This document shows, one piece after another, positions 31,795 through 53,344 of a stretch of DNA of 64,000 nucleotides (position 1 is the first letter of the stretch; each line of letters opens with the position of its first letter). A program made the translations under genes and the position numbers. Origin of the DNA: Rhizodiscina lignyota. Taxonomy: Eukaryota. The notes beneath the pieces are model-generated. The model did not search any database. It was given only the letters and a program-made list of their open reading frames with translations, and had not been told where the DNA came from. Where the stretch lies: positions 248,001 through 312,000 of the forward strand of contig ML978125.1 in NCBI GenBank assembly GCA_010015805.1. The letters are read 5' to 3'.

Positions 31795-33116
31795 CTAGGA
31801 TTGCCACGGTCTTCGTCCATACACGACAGTACTGGATCTGGTCAGCATCTTATCTTGTTTCCTGGGGACGTGAGAAGTGGCTAGAAGCAAAAGAAACTTT
31901 TTTCCGCCACTCACCCTTCAAGATACGCATGGGTATCGTAGTCCTTCAAGTTCTTGCGCATCTCATGCAGGAACAGTTGGGCGCGTTGAAAGGACCACTA
32001 TGTATGCATGTCAGCATGCCGCATCAAACCAAAGCGCGGCAAAGTTGCCATTTATGAACCAACTCCACTTACACCTCCAGCCACAGTCAGTAATCGCAGC
32101 ATCATGCCCTCCACGCCCTCATGGAGACGCAGCTGGTTCCACCTGCCTATTTCTCTCATTTTCGCGTCTGAGCTCCACCCGTTCATTGGCCATTTGTACC
32201 TTATTTCAGTGACTTCGACGAAGCCCGCCTGCTCCATCTTTTCGCGGCTTTCCTGCCATATGTTAAACGTCTTTCCGAAACGTCCTCCCATTTCAATGAC
32301 AGTCCTCCCCCACAGCCTATAGAAGTGATCTTCTGGCACCGTCTCATCATCGGCGGTTGGCTGAACGCTGTGCTCCACAATCTCCACCCAACCGCCTGGT
32401 CTCACGCAGCGGAAGCACTGCTGGAAGAAGTAGTCCCAATCTGGTATGCTGCCGAACATTTCGCGAATATGGATAAAATCGAAGTGGTCTTCAGGGTACG
32501 TCCACTCGAGCGTAACATCATCCACCTCAAAGGAGCAGTTCGGTGGCACAAAGTCCGGCTGTATAGCGCTCAGATCTGTCCCAACAACTGCAGCAGACGG
32601 ATACTGGTCTGCCATGTCGATTGCCCAAATGCCCGTCCCTGTTCCAACGTCCAGTATGCGATGTGGATTGTTCTCTATTGGTGCAAGGTGTAATTTGCCG
32701 TCCAGCGTGAGCAAATACATGTGGTGCGCGAGGTCCTGTGTCTCATTCGCAGGCTCATCATTCGGGCCCCAATATGCGCCGTCGCGATACGCGTGGTATT
32801 GCCTGCCATTCTCCGTACGGTATTCTGTGATGAAACTCGCCAATGTCATTGTGTCGTCGCCAAGCAGGGACTCGCTGTCGTAGGCCGAGTCTCCGGACGG
32901 GAATGCGTCCTCGTTGTCGGAGTCATGTTGGGCGGCCACGTCAGGATTGGCATTGAAGGATAGGGTTTCGATAGGGTTTGATGTAGGTACTGCTGGTACC
33001 TCTGGTGCGTTGGAAGGTGATTTGGGGGGAGAGGGGACGTCGTCTCCCTCATCGGGGGGTAGATGCACGGCGCTGTCGCGGCCAGTGGGTTGTTGCTCGG
33101 GCCCAACCCCCGCCAT
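31795..33116 (-). CDS. LaeA-like class I SAM-dependent methyltransferase (2 introns near the 3' end)
   Basis: ENGRQYHAYRDGAYWGPNDE, ILDVGTGTGIWAIDMAD, GTDLSAIQP and PGGWVE motifs. Terminal exon TVVYGRRPWQS*. Confidence 0.9.
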
Positions 33117-33693
33117 TGTTGAATTACATGCGCAATTGACTCTAGCCTTGGTGTCGTGCTAAGCCTCGGCGCATAGACGCATCGCAACACTGCCAACAGC
33201 GAAGAACGAGGAGGAGATGTGCTGAAACGCAAACCGCGGTGCGGTTCGAATCGCACGGATGCACTTTTGAGCGTGCGAACAGCCCTGCCGGGCGTGGGAG
33301 GATGCGTGGAATGACGAACAGGGTCTAGCCCCGAAGCCACCACGGGCGCCAAACTCCGTTGAGATCGGCGCTGCCGGGAAGCGAAGCGAAGGGCGTCTAG
33401 CGGACGATGCAGCCGAGGGTGACGCTGGTGCTGACCAGTCGCGGTTTTAACGTGGCATCTCTGAGGTGGAAGCGGGACGCAGGAATGCAAATGGCATGTC
33501 ATCTTGCTTTTTGGTCTCGCTCGGCGTTCGCGCGCATCCTTTGTTCCATATCTGCGGTGTACACCACGATGACAGGCTCGCATCTCAAGTCTCATTCATC
33601 CGCGGTTCTGGCTCTGCGTCTGCTTCGGTGTTCTCCGGGCCAATACAGCGCGACGACAAACCTCTGTAGCCTGATTGGGCCAGATCTCTCGAT

Positions 33694-35116
33694 ATGACGG
33701 ATCACCAAGATGTGGGCGATAATGCGACTGTGCTGATCATAGGATCTGGTGCGCATCGTCCCCGGTCGTTTGACAATCAGTGGCAACTTTCGTGGACAGA
33801 TACTCACCTTTTCTATCGTGTGCAGGCAGCACCGGATTGGCGCTCGCTCAGGGGCTGCTAAAAGTATGTCCGAAGGCAGACACCTTACGTTTTGTCTCGT
33901 ATATTATCGCCACTCAGATATCTGACGACGAACGGTGTAGGCAGGCGTGAAATGCATCGTATTCGAGAAAGATGCCAGTCAGACCGCAAAGTCGAGAGAC
34001 TGGAACATGGGCTTGCACTGGGGCGCAGCGCCTCTCGAGGCCGTTCTCTCAGCTGAGGGCTGGAGTAAGCTACAGACAGTTCAGGTGGATCCGAACGTCC
34101 CAGCCAAGCCGAATGATACCCTACACTTCCTCAACTCGCAGACAGGCGAGGTGATGGGAGGCGCCACAGTTGACCTGTTCTATCGTCTGCGGCGAAGTAA
34201 GTTGCGAGCTCTGCTAGCGGAGGGACTCGATGTCCGTTACGGGAAGCGGTTCAAGGACGCCGATTTTTCGGATTATGAGCAAACAGTGACCGCATACTTT
34301 GAAGATGGCAGTTCTGCTGTCGGTCGGATGTTAGTCGGCGCGGACGGCTCTCGATCATCTGTTAGACGTGCTCTGATACCGGACAACTTTGAGAATCAGC
34401 GCTTATCTTATGCTGCGACGTTTGTACAAGCCAGTTTCACGAGAGAGCAAGCGCAATTCCTGCGCCAATTTCACCCTCTATACCTCGCTGGGATCCACCC
34501 TGTCGGTCAGTTCTCATTCTTTGGCATTCAAGATGCATCCGATGAGACTCGTCCGGAAACGTGGATATTCTTCTTCTACATTTCCTGGCCATCTTCGCTT
34601 GAAGAGCAAGATGCTACAGAGGATTGGTCAGATGCCCAGCGACTTCAGCAGCTCAAGGACTTCGCCAAAGACTATGCGGATCCGTGGAAAAGCGCCTTGG
34701 AATGGGTTCCGCAGGACCATCCGGTGTGGTATCTCCGATTGAGTGACTGGGATCCAGGAGCAGAAGGTCATCAATGGGACAACCAGCGTGGACGAGCGAC
34801 TCTTGTAGGAGACGCAGCTCATACTATGACATATCAACGCGGCCAAGGCCTGAACCATTCGATTACCGACGCCGCGAAGCTGACCGATGCCTTGAAGCTG
34901 TTCATGGTCAATACTTCAAACGATGTCTCGGCTGGGGCGGAGAGTGGTGATGTACACCTTCAAGAGGAAAGTATCAATGCCTTTGAGGTGGAAATGATAG
35001 CGAGGGGTGGGGCCGAAGTTCGAATGTCTACAACAAATACGAAAATGCTCCACGATTGGGAGAGCGCACTTCGAAGCCCCGTCATGACTAAAGGCATGCA
35101 TCGTGAGAAGAAGTGA
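33694..35116 (+). CDS. FAD-dependent monooxygenase (class A aromatic hydroxylase-like), 2 introns
   Basis: Spliced Rossmann motif VLIIGS|GSTGLALAQGL, DG motif LVGADGSRSSVR and GD motif TLVGDAAHTMTYQRGQGLNHSITD. Confidence 0.9.
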
Positions 35117-39465: not shown

Positions 39466-42429
39466 ATGGATCCATTGTCTCTCATTGGAGGCGTCAGTGC
39501 CGCTGGCGCAATTGTAGCGGCGATCGTTAAGACTTTGAAAACACTATCTGACGCTCGGGGCAAATTTGATAATGCGGACACCACCATCTACCTTCTAATT
39601 AGTGAGCTGACGGCCATCAAGGCGGCCATTGAGCAGATCAAGGACTGGGCGACCTACGTGGCACAGAGTCCCAGTCGACAGGAGCTGGTGGAGGCATTCA
39701 AAATCTCATTTGATGGATGTAAAATTGCTATGGATACGTTGGCTGATGATATCGCTGGACTGGTCTCGAACAATCCATTTTTTGCGCGAGCAAAATATAC
39801 ATGGAACGAAGTTGAGATGAAGGATCACGCTGACAGGCTTCGGGACCAAGTTAGAGCGCTTCAGCTGTTGATTCAGGCAGTTCATTGGTATACACGGAAC
39901 GTGCACTCTTTCGCTGCTCATAAACGCTGATATTGCAACAGTCGCAACGAAATACAACAAGCAGCCCTACTTGAAGAACCCAGCAACGTTCGTATCATTC
40001 GAAAGGTGGCAGATGACACCGAGACTCTTTGCGCCAGTCGGAGAAGTTACGCTCATCTTTCCAGCGGTACACCCAGTGCGGCCACAATTACTGATGCAAC
40101 CGAATCTAATCTTGGAACCGCGTTGGATGAAGCAGACCGTAAAACGGTCAGTACAAACCCATGGCGGCGGTCCCCGGGGCTGAAAACTCCTGAAAATCGC
40201 CCTCAGGGGCGGGCCGCGTCCATAAACTCGGAAACTTCGGAAATTCTGAGCCCACCCGTGAGTCTGGGGTTCGAGAAACGCAGGCTCACGGTCCGCACAA
40301 ATGTAACCAAAGACAGCGGGTTCTACGATGCAGATGCGGACCAGGTTAATCCCGAAGCTTACCGGGAAGCGGTGGCGGCCGACAAAGCACGAAATGTGCA
40401 TAGGACTGTCTCCGCTCCGCAGGCGAAGCCCGTACAGGCAGCTGCGTTCTTTGACGAGGCGCGAGATCAGTTGACTCCAATGGAACGTTTCAACACAGAA
40501 TGGCAAACAAGACCGCTCGATCTAGATCCATTCGACACCCAGTCTGCTGTGCGTCCTATCCGCCACCACGCATCCCACTCAGAATCTTCCCTGTCTCCTG
40601 TTTTGCACGTGAAAAGGTCGGAAGAGTTCAGAAAATCTCCGTGGGGGACGATAAAACGCGGCTTTAGCCGAGCAATCTCTTCGCCTTCCGGGCAGATCGG
40701 GTCCGCGAGACCGAGTGATGCCACACTAGCAATAATTGGGACCAAAAGCGTCAAGCGAAGAAGTGAAACAAACATTCACCACAGCATCGACTTCGGCAGC
40801 GAAGATGGATTGTTGGCGCCGCCTCTCGTTCGAGCGGCACAGTCCGGCTCCAGAGTTGAAGTCGAACGATTACTTGAACAGAGAGCCGACATTGAAGCCC
40901 GCCACCTCAGTTCTGGAAGGACGGCACTGGCTGTGGCATCACATTGCGGCAATGACGGCGTCGTCATTTCATTACTGTACCATCACGCGAGAAATGATGT
41001 CAAAGATGCACTTGGCATGACCCCACTCCATCTCGCAGCGTCACGCGGCCACTATAGAGTACTGAATCTTCTACTAGAGAACGATGCCGACGTCGACGCG
41101 CGAGGGCCGGATGACAAGACACCGCTTCGACTCGCCTCTGACAATGGACACTCCGAGTGCTGCGAGCTGCTTTTAGAACACAGGGCGAGAGTGAATGCAA
41201 GAGACTGCCACATGGTCACACCACTTCATGCAGCGGCGAGGATTGGAGATGCACACCTTATCGATCTGCTCATCAACAACAAAGCTGATTTTGAAGCGAA
41301 GGATGCGTCCTTGATGACGCCCCTTCACTACGCCGCGCATGGCGACTTCGATTCCGTAGTTGAGGTCTTGCTTGCTCACAAAGCAGATGTCAACTCTATT
41401 GGCTTCCAAGGCAAGACGCCTCTTTGTTGCGCCTGCGAATCTGGTGCGACTCACACGGCGGCACTCCTCATCTCTCGTAAGGCCAACATTCGTCATCAAG
41501 GCGAAGATAACATGACGCCCCTCCACTGGGCATGTCAGAGCAACAGGCCGGAAGCAGCGGACCTACTATTACAACAAAAGCGGGCCCAAATTGATGCGAG
41601 AAACAGTAAAGGCCGAACGCCGCTGCACCTTGCAGTATGGGCGAAGAGCTTCGACGCCGCAGACCTCTTGATTCGCAAAGGCGCATCGATCGAGCTACAA
41701 TGCTATCAAACCCTTAGACCTCTACACTATGCTTGCAAGAACAGCGATGCGGCAATAACACGGCTTCTTCTGCACTCTGGTGCAGACGTCGAAGCAGCGA
41801 CTGCGACTGGCTTGCGGCCTCTTCACCAAGCGGTTGCTAAAGGGACGGAGGCTGTCATAGCCATGCTACTTCAGAAAGGCGCTCAGACCGAATCCCGTAT
41901 GTCCAACGGCGAGCGCGCGCTTTGCATAGCATGTTCGTGTGGGCACATAGGTGCTGTTAGGATGATACTAGACGCTGGAAGTCCTATGCAAATGAAGGCA
42001 TCGAAAGGACCTTCCCTCGAAGACTCGCCTCTTTGTCGGGCTGCACGGTACGGCCATGCCGACATTGTTCAAGAGCTAATTAGAAGAGGCACATCAGTCC
42101 GACAACGCGACGAGAACAACTGGCAGCCACTTAGATACGCAGCGTATTTCGGACATCCTGCCGTAGTCGAGACACTTCTGGCCGAAAAGGCACCTGTCTT
42201 CACATTTGATGTGGGCCATAACATGGATGCCATGACCACAGCTTCAAGCATCGGCTTTGCTGCAGAGGTCGACGCTACGAGGAGAGTGCAGGTGCTCAAT
42301 ATGCTGAACACCGCACAGGAGAGAGAGCGGAATGTGCCGCGGAGACTCTCAGATACAGATCCCTACTTGACGATGCCACCTGCAGATGCGATAGCATCGG
42401 AAGCTGTTCGCATATATGAGGTTGCGTAA
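39466..42429 (+). CDS. HeLo-like (fungal STAND N-terminal) helical domain + low-complexity linker + about 14 ankyrin repeats
   Basis: MDPLSLIGGVSAAGAIVAAIVKTL...LISELTAIKAAI N-terminus; intron 39888-39941; 14 TPLH-type ankyrin units between about 40810 and 42190; no P-loop seen. Confidence 0.85.
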
Positions 42430-42571: not shown

Positions 42572-43447
42572 CTATGCAGTCGATGTCGGACTACTTGCAG
42601 CGCTGGACGTTGAACTTGTCGAACTACCACTCTTAGCCACTGTTGCTTGCACCACTTGGCCCGCGGCGTTGAAGATGATGTTCACCAGCGCATTGAGTGG
42701 TGAGTAAGAGTACGTCTTTTGTGTCAGCCCGTTCTGTAGCGTCTGCACCTCTCCCGTGAAAGTCATATTCTGCAGGTAACTTCCAACAATCGTGCTGACA
42801 GTGTTGCCGGCGGTGCCCGCGACCTGCGACACGATATTGCCCAAATTATCGATGATGAACGACACTGCATTTCCGCCTTGTGTGATGGTTCCCAGCAGAC
42901 CGTCCACCTCACCGACTACCGTATCCACCAGGTTCGTGACGTCGTTGATCGCGGAGATGAGGAGGGGGTTGAGGTCGAGCGACTTGAACACGCGGTTCAC
43001 AATGTCGACGAGATGTCCGAGACGCACAATGAGTTCGAGCTCAGCCTCCACGTCGGAGATCGTGATGTTGACTTTCTCGATTGAAACTTGTACGCCTGCG
43101 TTGATGGTGACGATGCCGGCCACTTGGGCATTGAGATTGATGTTGGCTTCTAGGTCATCGACATCGAGCTCAATCCTGCCAACGGAGAGGGTGGGCACGT
43201 TGAGATAGACATCGGGAGCTGTGGAGGTCGCCGCGTTAGAGCCGCTACTTGTGCGAGTGCGCGAGGTAGAGGAGCTGTTTGAGGCGCCGGTGATGGTCGC
43301 GCCGAAAGTTACATCGGTTGCACTAGAGGATGCAGGTACGGACGAGGTGACTGATGGTGTATCGGACGTTGCGGATTGAGCGCTGGAGCGCTGGATTGCG
43401 AGTGCGAGGATGCATATCCAGAAAATGACGAGGAGACGAGACGACAT
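42572..43447 (-). CDS. Secreted uncharacterised protein A (291 aa, intronless); paralog of 44481..45416
   Basis: Signal peptide MSSRLLVIFWICILALAIQRSSA, Ser/Thr-rich stalk, core PDVYLNVPTLSVGRIELDV...SLDLNPLL and NMTFTG motif. Confidence 0.85.
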   Translation of the reverse strand: MSSRLLVIFWICILALAIQRSSAQSATSDTPSVTSSVPASSSATDVTFGATITGASNSSSTSRTRTSSGSNAATSTAPDVYLNVPTLSVGRIELDVDDLEANINLNAQVAGIVTINAGVQVSIEKVNITISDVEAELELIVRLGHLVDIVNRVFKSLDLNPLLISAINDVTNLVDTVVGEVDGLLGTITQGGNAVSFIIDNLGNIVSQVAGTAGNTVSTIVGSYLQNMTFTGEVQTLQNGLTQKTYSYSPLNALVNIIFNAAGQVVQATVAKSGSSTSSTSSAASSPTSTA

Positions 43448-44480
43448 GATGGACAGTCTGCAGAGCTTGACAGCTCACACAAGAAACGAGAGACGTGAAG
43501 GACGGAAAGAAAATATTGTCTGCTGCCTCAGTCTGTCAGAAGTTCATCGCGTACCAGGAGGCCCACTCTCTCATGAAGGTGGAGAGGTGGGAGTAAATAC
43601 GACCAGCCGGGGCCTACGCGAAAGCGGACGAGGATCGTGCCACGATTTCTTCGAGAAGTTAGAACTGCATTTCGCGCAAGGGCCTCAGTCAGAAAGCAGG
43701 AGAATGTCATCATGGGTCTTTCCTCTAGGGCTATCTCTTCATGGTATGGCGCGGGCGTTTTGCATGTCACCCCGGACAGGGTGAAACAAAAGCGAATGTG
43801 GCTCACGGCCGCACTCTGCCTGATTTGGCCATTCAGAAAGTGTCAAGTCGACAGGTTCGTAATGCGTCCTATGCATGCGAGAGTGGCATTCTAGAAAAAC
43901 CGGTTTTCCATGCGCCGAATACGGCCAATTGGTCAGATGAGGTTGAAATTAAGATTGCGCGATGATATGGAAGAAAAGGGGTCGGCCAGAGCTCGTGGCT
44001 GCCGCGTGGGGCTGTGGACCTTCGCTCTTTTCCCCCGCACCCTCATCCAACAGCAAAGTGAAGGAGGCATTCGAGCTCATCTCGTGGTGGCAGGTCAAGA
44101 CCTCTTTCTGAAGTGATTTCAGAAGACGAAAAGAGCAACGCCGCCATTTGCTTGGGACGGCAAACTTTGCAGCAACTGCAGGGCGAGGAGCCGCAGATGG
44201 TTCGCGAGCTCGCGCCGTTGCCCTCGTCTGGACATGGTCGATCCATGCGCTCAGGGGTGTGGAAATTGCGATGCATTTGGCATTGCGATGACAACAGTGC
44301 ATGCACGATGCATGGAATTTGGACAGGGAAACTGGCAAGGTCATTATCAAAATGTCGTCCACCTATGTCCGCTCGCCCCGCGATGTGATGTTGTGAGCTT
44401 AACCTCCTGCTCTTCGACGCCGGAGGCAAGAGTCTCGTCTCCGTCCGCTCGCTTTCATTTCTGTTGAAGTCGCTTTCAAA

Positions 44481-45416
44481 ATGTTCCAATCCCTACTTCT
44501 GTCTATCGAGGTGATTGCGATCGCGCTCGCAAATATTGTATTCGCGCAATCTTCATCAACCTCCGCTCAGAGCACTGGCTACTTTGGATACAACCTCACA
44601 GAAACTGGCGACCCGACCGCCGCAACATACGACACATTAGATACTCCGGCAAACGTATCGCTCACAGTACCGGAGCCCGACGTTTATCTACATGCTAATG
44701 TCCATGTGGGCGAGATCGATATTCTAGTCGCAAACCTCTCGGCAAAGATCAACCTCGACGCACAAGTCCTGCAACTACTGCAATTCAATGCCGGAGTCGA
44801 CGCGTCGATCAAGCGCGTCTTCCTCACCATCCAGAATGTCACTGCAGAGGTCTATCTGGAGGCAAGATTGGGCAATGTCGTTAAGATGATCGGAGACGTA
44901 CTGGACTCACTGGACCTCAATCCTGTACTGGCAACCCTCGGACAGAGTTTAGACAACATCACAGACACCGTCGGCGGGGCTCTTGGTGGAAGCGGCAGCG
45001 GCGGCAGCAGCGGCAGTGGCAGCAATGGTACTTTGGCGCGCAGGAATCCAGGCCTGCCACAGCAGTCCTTCGAACTCCTCCAAAACATCCTGTACTCAGT
45101 CAACGACTACACCGGCAACAAGCACACGAACCGGATCCTTGCGCAGAACGGCGATATTGTGGACGAGTTTCTGGACAATGATGGCCGTATTCGCGGCACG
45201 AAGGTCGTCGGAAATTTCGAGAACGACATGACGTTCACTGGCCACAACAGCAGTGCAGTGAAAAACGGACAGACGGTAAACGAGCTTGAGTACACTTATA
45301 CCCCATTACCTGGTGTGCTTGCATGGGCCGCTGTCTTTATGAATGCGGCAGGAAGCGTCGTCGCGACGCAAGTCCTTGCAGAAGGGTTTGGAGGTGGAAG
45401 TAGTACTATCGACTAG
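44481..45416 (+). CDS. Secreted uncharacterised protein B (311 aa, intronless); paralog of 42572..43447
   Basis: Signal peptide MFQSLLLSIEVIAIALANIVFA, core PDVYLHANVHVGEIDILV...SLDLNPVL, Gly/Ser linker and DMTFTG motif. Confidence 0.85.
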   Translation: MFQSLLLSIEVIAIALANIVFAQSSSTSAQSTGYFGYNLTETGDPTAATYDTLDTPANVSLTVPEPDVYLHANVHVGEIDILVANLSAKINLDAQVLQLLQFNAGVDASIKRVFLTIQNVTAEVYLEARLGNVVKMIGDVLDSLDLNPVLATLGQSLDNITDTVGGALGGSGSGGSSGSGSNGTLARRNPGLPQQSFELLQNILYSVNDYTGNKHTNRILAQNGDIVDEFLDNDGRIRGTKVVGNFENDMTFTGHNSSAVKNGQTVNELEYTYTPLPGVLAWAAVFMNAAGSVVATQVLAEGFGGGSSTID

Positions 45417-48449: not shown

Positions 48450-48510
48450 TCTTTCTTATCTGAAAACTCTCTAAGCTTTTGCTCTCGCAACAACGCTCTT
48501 AAAGTTCAGA

Positions 48511-49332
48511 ATGGCATTTCCTTACAAGAAAATACTCGTCATTGGAGCTACTTCGGGAATTGGCGAAGCATTGAGCGCCCGGTTCGTTGAGAATGGCATC
48601 TTCGTGATTGTCACTGGGCGCCGCAAAGAGCGACTTGATTCGTTCGTCGAGAAACATGGCAAGGACAAGGCGGCAGCAGAAGTTTTCGACATCGCGCAGC
48701 TCGACAAGATTCCACACTTCGCACGCGAGGTAACTGCTGCGCACCCGGACATTGATGCAGTGCTTGTCAATGCCGGCATGCAACGCGGCTTCGATTTCTC
48801 CAAACCTGAGACTGTCGACCTCGCCGATGTGGACATGGAGGTCAAGACCAACTACAGTGCTTACCTTCACATCACGCATGCATTCCTCCCATTCCTCCAG
48901 AATGCATCAAAGAGTCGAGACGTGGCGCTCATGTACATGTCGTCTGGTCTGGCACTCCTTCCCATGATTCATATTCCTGGATACTGTGCGACCAAAGCCG
49001 CACTACACCATTTCATCCTCGTGCTCCGCGAACAACTCAAAGGACCATTCCCAAGGCTCAAAATTATCGAAATATTCCCTCCGGCTGTGCAAACTGAACT
49101 TCACGACTGGTTTCCGGACCTCGAAGTTGGAAGGGGCTGGGGCATGCCTCTGGATCAGTTTACGGACATTGCTTGGAGCAAGTTGAGCTACGGTGAGGAA
49201 CAACCAAACATTGGCTTAGCTGAGATGGCATTCAATCGATTCGAGAGTGCGAGACAGGCGGCCTTTCAGCAGCTTGCTGAGAAGTCGAGATCGGAGCCAG
49301 GTAAAGATTCGAGTCAGCCGGGTTCATCATAA
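48511..49332 (+). CDS. Short-chain dehydrogenase/reductase (DltE-like), intronless
   Basis: ILVIGATSGIG, VNAG, SSGL, YCATK (YxxxK) and PPAVQTELH motifs. Confidence 0.9.
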   Translation: MAFPYKKILVIGATSGIGEALSARFVENGIFVIVTGRRKERLDSFVEKHGKDKAAAEVFDIAQLDKIPHFAREVTAAHPDIDAVLVNAGMQRGFDFSKPETVDLADVDMEVKTNYSAYLHITHAFLPFLQNASKSRDVALMYMSSGLALLPMIHIPGYCATKAALHHFILVLREQLKGPFPRLKIIEIFPPAVQTELHDWFPDLEVGRGWGMPLDQFTDIAWSKLSYGEEQPNIGLAEMAFNRFESARQAAFQQLAEKSRSEPGKDSSQPGSS

Positions 49333-49729
49333 GGTATCCTCGATGAGAGATGCAGGACAAAGATCTTAAATAAGTCATTGGTGCAGGGATTCCTAGAAGG
49401 TCCGGGACGGCGTTGTTGAGTCGAAGGACATTAGATCAGACATGAACTGATATATAGACAAAACTCGAGAAGTCTGCGTGGGAAATATCCAAAAGGTTCG
49501 CTCGGCGCAAACATGCGGCGACACGGGCACAGCCACATGTGAACCTCCTCCTGATTGCATAAATCCGAGACACGCGGCGCATCGCTCCGACTTTAACCTC
49601 CACCTCGCTCTTCCACTCCCACGCCCATATTGCTCTTATAGTCCATCCCCTTTACATTTCGAGTCTGATCGTATCTCGATACTGCTTACAGCGTAAAAGA
49701 GAGTCGAATTCGAACACGAAACGAGCACA

Positions 49730-50525
49730 ATGGGGTATGAGGAGTTCAGTACAGCAATGACCAACCGGTCATTGCGCACCATCAAAACAGTATGTCTCAT
49801 GCGAGCTCTTCTCCATAGCGAACATTGTTCTAACGTACGTCCTTCAGGAACTCGTTTTTCTCACCGAATCCTCTATCATCTCCGAGTCCCAACTTGAAAA
49901 CATCCTGAAAGAGCTTCCCACGGAGAGCGACACTATAATCCACCCCACCCAGCCTACTCCTACCCCAGCGGCGGCGATGAGTAACCTCTCCCTCCAAAAC
50001 ACAAAGAACAGCTACAACGAGAAGCAAGAATACGAAGCGCCTCAGGGTCCACCCCCCTCATATCCGGCCTACCCAACGCCACCACCAACAGCCGCAGCTC
50101 TCTGCCACGCCACTGCCCTGTACGCCTACAACCCTACCGACGCAGGCGATCTAGCACTCATCCCGAACGACCGGGTTGCCGTAACTGAGTACATGAACGC
50201 GGAGTGGTGGAAGGGCAGCAACGAACGGACCGGCCAGGAAGGTATCTTCCCACGCAGCTACGTTAAGGTGGAGGAGAAGAGTACTGGCGCGTTGGCGACG
50301 CCGCAGCAAGCGTTCGGCGGCCCGGTGCAGAACCAAAACCAGGGCACAAGCTATGGCAACATGCCATTGGAGGTGGCCAACGGCACGCAGCAGGGTGAGC
50401 AGTCGAAGCTTGGTGGAGGCAAGGCGCAAGAGGCGGGTAAGAAGATTGGCAAGAAGTTGGGAAATGCCGCAATTTTCGGAGCAGGTGCCACGATCGGGTC
50501 GAACATTGTCAATGGAATTTTCTGA
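49730..50525 (+). CDS. PIN3: SH3-domain protein, Pin3/Lsb1 family (1 intron)
   Basis: MGYEEFSTAMTNRSLRTIKT|ELVFL N-terminus, PPPSY motif, SH3 ALYAY..DLAL..EWWKG..GIFPRSYV and the family-typical C-terminus KKLGNAAIFGAGATIGSNIVNGIF. Confidence 0.88.
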
Positions 50526-51009
50526 GCTTGTTCGTTGCAGCAGTGGATGTTCAGAATCATCGGCATGGCATAGGCGTATTGGCGTTTCGGATTCGAGTGG
50601 AATAAGCGCTCTCGTAGGGTGAGAGATTATCGGATCAAATAGTGCTTTCTTAATAGGTTTCACAAAATGACGCCATCTTCCTCTCACTGATTATGCAGTT
50701 CTTCACAAAATGTAGGTATCCGATGACGGCAAGTTCTCCTTCTCGTTGGCAACCGAGAGGAACCGCGTGTCATGAGAGCAGTGGTTCACACTTAGGCTCG
50801 GGCGTGCTCGCACTACTCCCTCTGACGTACAGGCGAATCCTTTTCATATTTCATTTCACCTACCTGCATGTAGTACTTTCACCTCACTTGTTTCCCATGC
50901 TCAACCACGCAATCGTCTAACCGACTGGGGCAAGTTCATTCTATCTTAATTGCATCTATTGCAAGCTGTTTCATCTTTGCGCCAATCTATTGCTATATCG
51001 CCCCCAGTT

Positions 51010-53344
51010 ATGTCGCGTCGGGAATCACGCCCGCCTGAACTTCCACAGCTTCACTTCTCCCCACGTCCCCTCTCTGGCATTTGGCGATGGGGATCGGGTT
51101 ACTTCGGCAAGGACTTCAGAGGTAGCTGGATTGAACTCGATGGTCTCGAATCCGGGTCGAAAGACATGAATGAGAGCATCATAGATTACGGCCACCGATA
51201 TTCACGCACACCGAAGCAGGCGCTTGAGGTGATTCGAGATTCCACATCCACAGCAACAGAGGATACCCAATCGAGAACGGATTTGGGCGATATACCTGAC
51301 GTTACTCGAACTCAAACATTACCTACGCTTGCGAAGAATACTAGGAGCAGCAGCCGCGGCCGACGCCACGATTCTCAAGCGGCGAATAGCAGACAAGAGA
51401 GGTCGAAAAGTGAAAGTCAGGCCCACAATCACATCAAACGCCAGTATGAACCACGCGTGCCGTGCCATGCATCTCACCTCGCGCAGGTAGACAACACTGG
51501 CGTTGGTGTTGCCCGTGATCCGGCCTCTCTCGCATCACCATGGGTTCGCCGCTTCGCCATCACACCAGTACCACTGCCACCGAGAGCGCCGACGCCAATC
51601 TTCATGACACACGAATTCGATGCTGGTCACTTGAACGGACCAAATTTGCACGAACCTACAATGGAGCGGACAGAATCCAACATGAGCCGCTCTCAGAAAG
51701 AAGCTGATGACCTAGGAAACTCGTTTAAAGACTTCAGCGAAATTCACGCCCGCACCTCGAAATCATATTCTTCGAAGGTAGAGTCCCAACACGACACGAA
51801 CAGTACAATGGTAGAGAACAAGAGCGATACATTCCATCAACCATTCTCAAATACTCACAATCGAATAAGCATGGCCTCTAAGGCGGTATCAGAGATGTCT
51901 CGGTACCACGACGTTGACCTCGAACGCGGTGCCAGCGACCACTACAATGTCCCAGATACTGCCACAAACAACCGCTTCTCCAGGGCCACCATGTCCACCG
52001 ACCCGCTTGCCCTCTGTGACCCGCAACCACCTGGCGACTTCGAGCCGCCACCCGATGGTGGTTGGCTCGCTTGGCTACACGCTGTCTTCGGCGCGTTCGC
52101 CATCTTCAACTGCTGGGGCCTCAATCTGTCGTTCGGTGTGTTCGAAGCCTACTACAAGACGATCTACATTCCGAACCACTCGCACTCAACAATCGCATGG
52201 ATCGGGAGCATACAGCTCTTCCTGATCTTCTTCACAGCGATCGTTGTGGGAAGATGCTACGATTTTGGTTGGTCCAGAGTGTTCTTCACCGGCGGGAGTA
52301 TAGGATTGGTGATTGCGGTGTACTTGACGAGTCTGTGCAAGAGCTGGGGCGCACTTTTTGCTGTGCAGGGTATCCTGACGGGTATGATGCAGGGCATGGT
52401 GTTTTGCTCCGGCATCCTCGTCGTCACCGAGTACTTTGACAAGAATCTCGGATTAGCCATTGGCATTAGTGCAGCAGGGAGCAGTGTTGGAGGAATTGTG
52501 TACTCGCTCATGGCGCAGCATCTGCTTCTGACCGCCGGCTTTGAGAAGACAATTCAGTATATGGGCATTGTGGTCATCCTTACGATGATTCCGAGCAACA
52601 TCGTCTTGCGATCCAGAAGGAAGAAGAGATCGGGAAAGGCACAGCAAGCTGTCGTAGACTTCGGCTTCTTGCGAGATCCTTCGTACCTGATGCTGCTATG
52701 GGGAATGTTCTTTAGCTTCTGGTCCTTGTATTTCGGGTTCTACTACGTGAGTTTCTCCAATTTCGATCCTTTTGCTTACCACCAGCCCCTAGAAAAATCT
52801 GGATACTAAATCTTTATAGATCGTGTCCTACGCCTACAACGTCCTCCAACTCCCCCCAGAGCAAAGCACTAATGTTCTCCTTGTTATGCTCGCTGCGAAT
52901 CTCCCAGGCCGCTTCGTCCCTGCTCTGCTCTCTGACCGATGTCTCGGCCCGATCAACACCCTCATTCCCTCTGTCCTGATCACAGCTCTCGTCATCTTCC
53001 TCTGGATCGGCACCAACACACCGTCAGGCCTGTACATCCTCGGCGCATTCTACGGCTTCGCGTCCGCTGGCCTGCAGTCGTTATTCTCGCCTGCTATAAC
53101 CGAGTTTTGCAGGGGTGATGATGGCACGAAGGGCCTTAAGAATGCGGTGGTGTTTGTAGCAATCGGGCTGGCATGCTTAACAGGGACGCCTATTGGTGGC
53201 GCTCTGATCGATTCTGGAAACACGCCAGAGGGACTGCCATATCTTTGGGCGCAGATCTTTGCCGGAGGCGCGATGACGTTAGGAGGCATTTGCTTTATAG
53301 CAAGTAGGGTCATGAAGGTTGGATGGGGGCCGGTAAGGACATGA
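51010..53344 (+). CDS. MFS monocarboxylate-transporter family (Mch4/Mch5-like) with a long N-terminal extension, 1 intron
   Basis: PPPDGGWLAW, WGLNLSFGVF, AWIGSIQ, EYFDKNLGLAIGISAAGSSVGG, PGRFVPALLSD and LTGTPIGGALI motifs. Confidence 0.9.

Follow-up and report, generated by a model that had tools for sequence, protein, structure and literature searches.

A conserved divergent pair of paralogous, putatively secreted proteins in Rhizodiscina lignyota and other filamentous fungi, with relatives in a bacterial three-gene operon

Introduction

In the bi-component leukocidins and gamma-haemolysin two kinds of subunit, S and F, each lend an amphipathic hairpin to a hetero-oligomer. Hydrophobins, Bacillus BslA and GvpA are small proteins whose sheets have one hydrophobic face, and they self-assemble in a layer at a hydrophobic/hydrophilic boundary. 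Here we describe two neighbouring genes, A and B, found in 64,000 nucleotides of the fungus Rhizodiscina lignyota (contig ML978125.1, positions 248,001 to 312,000; the whole of this stretch is referred to as the window), whose products form an uncharacterised family and which we tentatively read as subunits of an extracellular assembly. The proposed working mode would resemble, by analogy, that of the bi-component hairpin assemblies and of the amphipathic coats.

The comparison holds in some respects and fails in others. Like the leukocidins and gamma-haemolysin, A and B are neighbouring, apparently secreted paralogs of ~300 amino acids (aa) and roughly 30% identity; unlike them, they gave no sequence match and, in searches with whole models, no fold match and no cap or rim sandwich, they are fungal and conserved rather than patchy, their predicted hairpin has about double the length and is aliphatic from end to end, and their assembly is only proposed. 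Lysenin (PDB 5ec5), a member of the aerolysin family, also carries a very long hairpin on a small all-beta domain, but it is reached by a chance-level Foldseek row only and A and B have no aerolysin-type Pfam match. Among the coat-forming proteins, none of which gave a sequence match, GvpA shares a helix-flanked hairpin with A and B but is intracellular, about 70 aa long and devoid of a signal peptide, and hydrophobins have eight Cys where A and B have none. RHS/YD repeats consist of consecutive hairpins with D..G.IV and Y.Y.P...AG.VV motifs reminiscent of the second domain of A and B; that domain, however, has eight strands and no shell, and a sub-threshold match was obtained in one bacterial homolog only. 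A further comparable system is a bacterial operon of three genes, X, Y and Z, found in Acidobacteriota, Armatimonadota and Cyanobacteriota, in which Z is a true homolog of A and B in both domains.

Results

A divergent pair of paralogs

Genes A and B are uninterrupted open reading frames (ORFs) arranged head to head, and lie where an earlier note, made from the letters of the window and a list of its ORFs, had placed them.

Gene A, 42572..43447, minus strand: 291 aa, the better conserved paralog (ORF, translation, orthologs, A clade support 99).
Gene B, 44481..45416, plus strand: 311 aa, the faster-evolving paralog (ORF, orthologs, B clade support 100).
Divergent spacer, 43448..44480, no strand: 1033 bp, presumed bidirectional promoter region.

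A BLASTP comparison of A with B spans 276 columns, with 30% identity, 49% positives and E 2e-26, and takes in both the PDVYL...SLDLNP block and the G[ND]IV...MTFTG...Y[ST]Y[ST]P...NAAG block from which paralogy with two aligned domains had originally been proposed. Chance resemblance is excluded: on their sequences, A and B are paralogs. Both ORFs are colinear in alignment with full-length orthologs from Met to stop and are therefore intronless here, as had also been claimed. The accompanying statement that the neighbourhood is rich in introns was not established, the adjacent ankyrin gene having an open frame of 832 codons.

Several features of the two proteins bear on their location.

Predicted signal peptide of A, 43379..43447, minus strand: residues 1-23, hydrophobic core, ...SSA/QS, read by eye.
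Predicted signal peptide of B, 44481..44546, plus strand: residues 1-22, by eye and from the ortholog alignment.
Ser/Thr-rich spacer of A, 43217..43378, minus strand: residues 24-77, poorly conserved, with variable columns and a predicted local distance difference test (pLDDT) score <50.
C-terminal tail of A, 42575..42631, minus strand: residues 273-291, Ser/Thr-rich, without a hydrophobic end of the glycosylphosphatidylinositol (GPI) type.

The N-termini of both proteins read as hydrophobic and end A-Q-S, and residues 2-22 of A are a helix in the AlphaFold2 (AF2) model; A and B thus appear to be secreted. Residues 24-77 of A are probably O-glycosylated, and there are three N-glycosylation sequons in A and seven in B. 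The mature chains contain no Cys (the median is also 0 in 121 A-type and 240 B-type proteins), and neither A nor B has the hydrophobic C-terminal tail of a GPI-type signal; A ends ...SPTSTA, and a hydrophobic C-terminal 12-mer is present in just one of the 121 A-type proteins. The absence of Cys and of a GPI tail reported in the earlier note is thus borne out, and membership of A among the GPI-anchored fungal wall proteins is rejected for want of the attachment signal.

Conservation of the divergent arrangement

Divergent pairing of the orthologs, on which the earlier note had staked its reading, is very nearly invariant. We located A and B genes by tblastn on 80 environmental contigs encoding a relative of A (collected with an A-only alignment), and in 48 of the 49 contigs that extend further than 1.2 kb upstream from A, B precedes it in divergent orientation.

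Over 2500 bp upstream of the A match: 32 contigs, all 32 with B upstream and on the opposite strand.
1200-2500 bp upstream: 17 contigs, with B in 16 (L030, with 1316 bp, is the exception).
1200 bp or less upstream: 31 contigs, with B in none, there being no room.

Some contigs are near-duplicates: the 46 spacers (45 from these loci together with that of the window) collapse to 32 distinct ones, which measure 307-1302 bp. All loci examined have the pair in single copy. In nine named species (Stictis, Phlyctema, Loxospora, Hymenoscyphus fraxineus, Phialocephala, Hyphodiscus, two Xylographa species and Diplodia seriata) the locus tags of A and B are consecutive, and A is also found on contigs whose B is 61-75% identical to a Sordariomycete B, which places the pair in Sordariomycetes too.

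The surroundings of the pair are not conserved. With the exception of one generic ankyrin match, none of the window's 18 flanking ORFs is present on the 80 contigs, so that it is the two genes alone that stay side by side. A published survey reports that, in fungi, divergent pairs that are conserved have short spacers and a tendency to related function (PMC2871058). We infer that A and B are co-expressed from the shared spacer.

Predicted structure of the two domains

Two homologous domains are recognised in each protein.

Domain 1 of A, 42944..43216, minus strand: residues 78-168, with the PDVYL motif, a hairpin, two helices and the SLDLNP motif (AF2, invariant columns).
Domain 2 of A, 42632..42901, minus strand: residues 183-272, an eight-stranded antiparallel beta meander (2 x 4) in AF2.
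Domain 1 of B, 44676..44948, plus strand: residues 66-156, homologous to domain 1 of A (BLASTP, alignment, alternation test).
Domain 2 of B, 45060..45380, plus strand: residues 194-300, with an extra conserved NILYSVNDY..N.HTNR segment before the meander.

AF2 was run on A twice, with an alignment of 36 sequences and with one of 107 sequences (A residues 76-275), the latter having gained B orthologs and bacterial and other eukaryotic members. With 36 sequences domain 2 alone is confident (residues 183-272, pLDDT about 90) and domain 1 is unfolded (pLDDT <50). With 107 sequences the mean pLDDT rises to 82: domain 1 becomes a single long hairpin followed by helices (pLDDT 71-86), a disordered linker comes after them, and the eight-strand meander is as before. 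The strands of the hairpin span residues of about 80-109 and 113-141 of A (model positions 5-34 and 38-66), and the helices about 144-159 and 162-168 (model 69-84 and 87-93). Domain 2, with its hairpin motifs G-N-I-V / Y-x-Y-x-P / A-G-Q-V-V, scores pLDDT 85-98 in both models, and its fold matches are blade-like only, with Z of at most 7.3.

Hydrophobic/polar alternation over 68 columns of domain 1 is stronger than chance allows: none of 2000 shuffles reaches it, for A and B alike. Together with the 107-sequence model this upholds the amphipathic hairpin and following helix that had been proposed from the letters. The hairpin has one face composed entirely of V/L/I/A; the opposite face, as read from the sequence, consists of N/Q/S/T towards the tip and is rich in D/E towards the base. 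Conservation of at least 90% among A proteins is seen at 26 of 32 hydrophobic columns and at 14 of 28 polar columns, which fits an interaction surface on each side. If the model is right, a two-stranded ribbon of ~30 residues with such a fully aliphatic face is unlikely to remain in contact with solvent as a monomer; it should be covered, and must pack on a partner, a surface or a ligand.

A family outside those tested

The claim that the proteins belong to no recognised family also stood. Searches of Pfam-A with A and B (hmmscan, E up to 1) returned PIR2-like, YbaB and adh_short only, all below cut-off, and no Pfam model scored above cut-off for A, B or 20 relatives. There was no NCBIfam match, and no PDB sequence below E 0.1 with either A alone or the 107-sequence profile. 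The ESM Atlas gave unnamed clusters of the same family, plus rows of low template-modelling (TM) score that stem from a poor Atlas model. Foldseek searches of the PDB with both AF2 models produced no convincing match (best E 0.012 and 0.025): the lysenin pore is at chance level (E 0.044, probability 0.2, TM 0.14, root-mean-square deviation 27), LolA appears in weak rows (E 0.04-0.1, probability 0.85-0.98, TM 0.24-0.29), and the LprG rows are likewise weak. A literature search over 8.4 million papers, supplementary tables excepted, turned up no mention of fifteen ortholog locus tags, among them NCU08522, NCU08521 and NCU08523. The A/B family is uncharacterised and falls outside every family and fold tested.

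Database names carried by individual orthologs, and candidate families with suggestive properties, were considered one by one. An A ortholog named 'Hydrophobic surface bindi...' in UniRef (P0035) gives no HsbA Pfam match, and nor does A. The B ortholog whose name points to BPI/LBP/CETP (TULIP) proteins (P0438), B itself, NCU08522 and others are without an LBP_BPI_CETP match at E up to 1, and no TULIP chain stands among the listed fold rows, which come from whole-model searches in which domain 1 was not searched alone. The name 'Cell wall protein', borne by some orthologs, has no Pfam match behind it. Membership among hydrophobins, which need eight conserved Cys in four disulfides, is rejected, there being none in mature A and B. 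The RHS_repeat model scored 16.8 bits against a cut-off of 22 (E 0.009) in the one bacterial homolog and found nothing in A or B. Neither protein matches the Leukocidin/haemolysin Pfam domain, and the leukocidin cap/rim sandwich fold is absent from the Foldseek and VIA rows, again from searches with whole models and not with domain 1 alone.

What unites A, B and Z is a signature of their own: a PDV-x-L start, an NAG[VA] turn, an R-L...[ST]-x-D-x-N-P helix cap and a G-x-IV / Y-x-Y-x-P / AG-x-V meander, in columns that are invariant or near-invariant in 36 fungal and in 107 mixed sequences. Judged by this signature, the three are a new family without a Pfam model.

Distribution and age of the duplication

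The family is large. With A and with B alike, word-indexed searches scored over 1000 proteins. Among sequences clustered at 50% identity, a profile built from 20 A and 16 B sequences recovered 1385 clusters when E up to 1e-3 was allowed and 1037 at a limit of 1e-10. The 120 best orthologs of A share 58-84% identity with it, and B is 52-75% identical to the 119 other orthologs listed; NCU08522 of Neurospora crassa is B-type and 48% identical to B. Named A orthologs come from six ascomycete classes, and named B orthologs from four. Among named matches, Leotiomycetes, Dothideomycetes and Lecanoromycetes have both; Chaetothyriales, Orbiliomycetes and one Arthoniomycete are represented by A; and Sordariomycetes are represented by B, through a Podospora query.

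In a maximum-likelihood tree of 64 rows (quick search, unrooted, base unresolved) A forms one clade with support 99 and B one clade with support 100; the stem branch of B is twice as long as that of A (1.15 vs 0.53). Since each clade is well supported and extends across classes, the duplication is, by this tree, older than the split of the sampled ascomycete classes, in line with the old duplication first suggested from the divergence of the two copies. A and B fall on one side of a branch at a Shimodaira-Hasegawa-like approximate likelihood ratio (SH-aLRT) of 83.9, a value at which their grouping is neither shown nor rejected, and their sister is a pair of eukaryote-like proteins (support 90.7). 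The bacterial sequences are one separate group (93), save two Ramlibacter rows that stand apart on a very long branch and are probably mis-called ORFs.

Some members come from outside the ascomycetes. Five full-length proteins (P0320, P0348, P0351, P0315 and P0358) look eukaryotic and non-ascomycete, one of them from a EukProt transcriptome assembly; two of the five make up the pair that is sister to fungal A and B. A protein of the basidiomycete Mycena kentingensis (P0258) is nested inside the ascomycete B clade, and a record of Bifiguratus adelaidae (Mucoromycota; P0157) is a B-type protein of 449 aa, 57% identical, with PF05544 listed. The occurrence of P0258 and P0157 may reflect contamination, mis-annotation or gene transfer.

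Bacterial relatives and the X-Y-Z operon

Distant members of the family had a bacterial look. A scan of representative prokaryote genomes, one per species, found 325 stretches encoding a relative of the family, the best 80 of which were analysed as loci.

Acidobacteriota: 66 (mostly Pyrinomonadaceae/Blastocatellia).
Bacteroidota: 6.
Pseudomonadota (Ramlibacter): 4.
Gemmatimonadota: 1.
Armatimonadota: 1.
Cyanobacteriota: 1.
Unclassified: 1.

The bacterial copy is equidistant from A and B (about 92 bits, 30-34% identity, both domains). The earlier note had pointed to similar PDVxL motifs in uncharacterised actinobacterial proteins, which it took to suggest a bacterial origin. Relatives are indeed numerous; Actinobacteria are absent from the best 80 loci, and the tree, unrooted and unresolved at its base, gives no sign of a bacterial origin.

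Directly upstream of the family gene in 61 of the 80 loci are genes for two small signal-peptide proteins, X (some 150-190 aa) and Y (some 115-140 aa). All three genes share a strand and follow one another as X, Y and family gene in 60 of these 61 loci, as at L096:4573-6684 and L112:4934-6639 (bacterial loci are numbered L081-L160), and the operon spans Acidobacteriota, Armatimonadota and Cyanobacteriota. X has no Pfam match and no relation to the family protein Z (hhalign probability 1.4%). Y shows a weak alignment, in register, to the latter half of domain 1 (probability 31%, E 5e-4, 56 columns), and X and Y have a strand-helix stretch in common (probability 71%, 25 columns). Y could represent domain 1 as a protein of its own; we treat these hhalign likenesses as leads, not findings.

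At one locus (L141:4715-5641) X and Y match a single ORF of about 308 codons, either a fusion or an artefact of ORF calling. Common genes surround the operon in about 26-29 loci, those sampled being from Pyrinomonadaceae or related Acidobacteriota: an FHA-GGDEF diguanylate cyclase upstream, T2SSM_b/PilO-like and IPT/TIG proteins downstream and, by eye, PilN-like and pseudopilin-like proteins also downstream (examples of flanking genes are L143:3415-4407, L149:1725-2390, L118:7622-8455, L144:8577-9536 and L135:6396-7094). These flanks may be plain synteny of close relatives, or may link the operon to a pilus- or secretion-like apparatus.

Discussion

A proposed hetero-oligomeric assembly and its alternatives

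Four lines of evidence bear on what A and B do: an aliphatic face that should not stay exposed, conservation of both faces of the hairpin, near-invariant pairing of the genes, and the multi-gene operon of bacteria. Taken together they make a hetero-oligomeric sheet the best-supported reading, namely that A and B are co-secreted subunits of an extracellular, amphipathic beta-sheet assembly, which we put forward tentatively and rate a little short of probable. A and B would be transcribed from the shared spacer and secreted together; their hairpins would then assemble in the wall or on the surface as a ribbon, sheet or barrel that buries or presents the aliphatic face, with domain 2 and A's glycosylated Ser/Thr spacers turned towards solvent or the wall matrix. 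A Kex2-type protease may cut B between its domains. Contact between A and B, and their location outside the cell, are what we infer from these observations.

A number of observations weigh against this reading. Adjacency kept over evolution can reflect shared regulation alone, and in the spacer itself a search of the 32 distinct sequences for k-mers (k = 6, 7 and 8) found none above the maximum of 100 shuffles, so that the shared promoter asserted in the earlier note is not confirmed by a conserved motif. Twelve metagenome contigs under 1.7 kb included none with a poly(A) end. A location in the wall is suggested by the Ser/Thr-rich spacers and by a few database names that lack Pfam support. 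AF2 satisfies the hairpin within one chain. Each of the 80 bacterial loci has a single copy of the family gene, and X and Y are missing within 4.5 kb in all six Bacteroidota and all four Pseudomonadota loci; single-copy homologs, some of them without X and Y, imply that the fold can work without a paralogous partner.

The alternative that survives best, though we consider it unlikely, is that A and B are co-regulated but physically independent paralogs, kept together by one regulatory spacer, each acting by itself or as a homo-oligomer, B having been sub- or neo-functionalised. The single copies of bacteria and the self-consistent monomer model are as this alternative would have them, and the extra conserved segments of B, with its longer stem branch (1.15 vs 0.53), suggest a diverged role; it accounts less well for a head-to-head order that is retained in 48 of 49 informative loci when the flanks are not, for the conservation of both hairpin faces in A and B, and for a bacterial three-gene operon that hints at a multi-subunit function.

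Two further explanations appear improbable. In the one, A and B would be a two-component beta-barrel pore-forming toxin of the S/F leukocidin kind, alternating in a ring, with domain 2 binding the membrane or wall of a competitor. Two adjacently encoded, secreted paralogs of ~300 aa and 30% identity, a strictly alternating hairpin with an uncharged N/Q/S/T polar face near its tip (read from sequence), the lysenin pore among the weak Foldseek rows and holders that are soil organisms all recall such toxins. There is, however, no Pfam match whatever and the lysenin row is at chance level; the aliphatic face, at ~30 residues per strand, is far longer than a bilayer, lacks an aromatic girdle and is backed in its basal half by an acidic polar face in the sequence. 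A single-copy pair in several classes at 58-84% identity is, moreover, unlike a fast-evolving toxin of patchy distribution, and residues of a pore lumen usually vary, whereas conservation here reaches at least 90% in half of the polar columns. The other, no less improbable, is that the proteins carry or bind lipid, wax or sterol in a curled hairpin with helices or a domain 2 half-barrel, LolA/LprG- or TULIP-like, as the long continuous aliphatic face, the weak LolA and LprG rows and the UniRef name 'Lipid-binding serum glycoprot...' of one B ortholog might suggest; but the protein so named has no lipid-binding Pfam match, and the adjacency of two paralogs is left unexplained.

A broader reading can also be entertained, which we regard as doubtful: the fungal pair and the bacterial X-Y-Z operons would be two versions of one ancient extracellular machine, whose subunits each give a long amphipathic hairpin and co-polymerise into a coat, tube or giant barrel on the cell surface, and which has been an obligate two-gene unit in filamentous ascomycetes since before their classes diverged.

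Proteins without known function that are yet 58-84% identical between classes are rare among the secreted proteins of fungi, and a pair that outlives its nearby synteny suggests that the cell surface of these filamentous organisms has a basic component that is still unstudied. Its holders include lichen-forming, rock-inhabiting and plant-associated species, and the family reaches soil bacteria, in a conserved three-gene operon. As a building block, the predicted hairpin, ~2 x 30 residues long and aliphatic on one face, is unusual and may be of interest for protein assembly and materials.

Features particular to B and the surroundings of the pair

Two further segments of B lie outside its domains.

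N-terminal segment of B, 44577..44675, plus strand: residues 33-65, B-specific, GYxGYxL...GDP...Y.T..T..N.S.
Linker of B, 44949..45059, plus strand: residues 157-193, Gly/Ser-rich, holding Arg187-Arg188 (45039-45044).

Residues Y34, Y37, Y50, T52, N58 and P64 of the N-terminal segment are invariant in 16 B orthologs. In 134 of 218 B-type proteins a dibasic [KR]R precedes the N[IV]L[YF]S motif by 6-14 residues (within 16); at the same position 79 have a single K/R and 5 have none, and A is without a counterpart. R187-R188 is thus a candidate Kex2-type cleavage site between the domains of B.

A large ankyrin-repeat gene (39931-42429), the one with the 832-codon frame, adjoins the pair in the window. 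Nearby (32052-35116 and 48475-52809) are a methyltransferase, an ORF resembling flavin adenine dinucleotide (FAD)-binding monooxygenases, a short-chain dehydrogenase and a major facilitator superfamily (MFS) transporter. Together with the ankyrin gene this set, which has no synteny to the pair elsewhere, recalls a small metabolic cluster.

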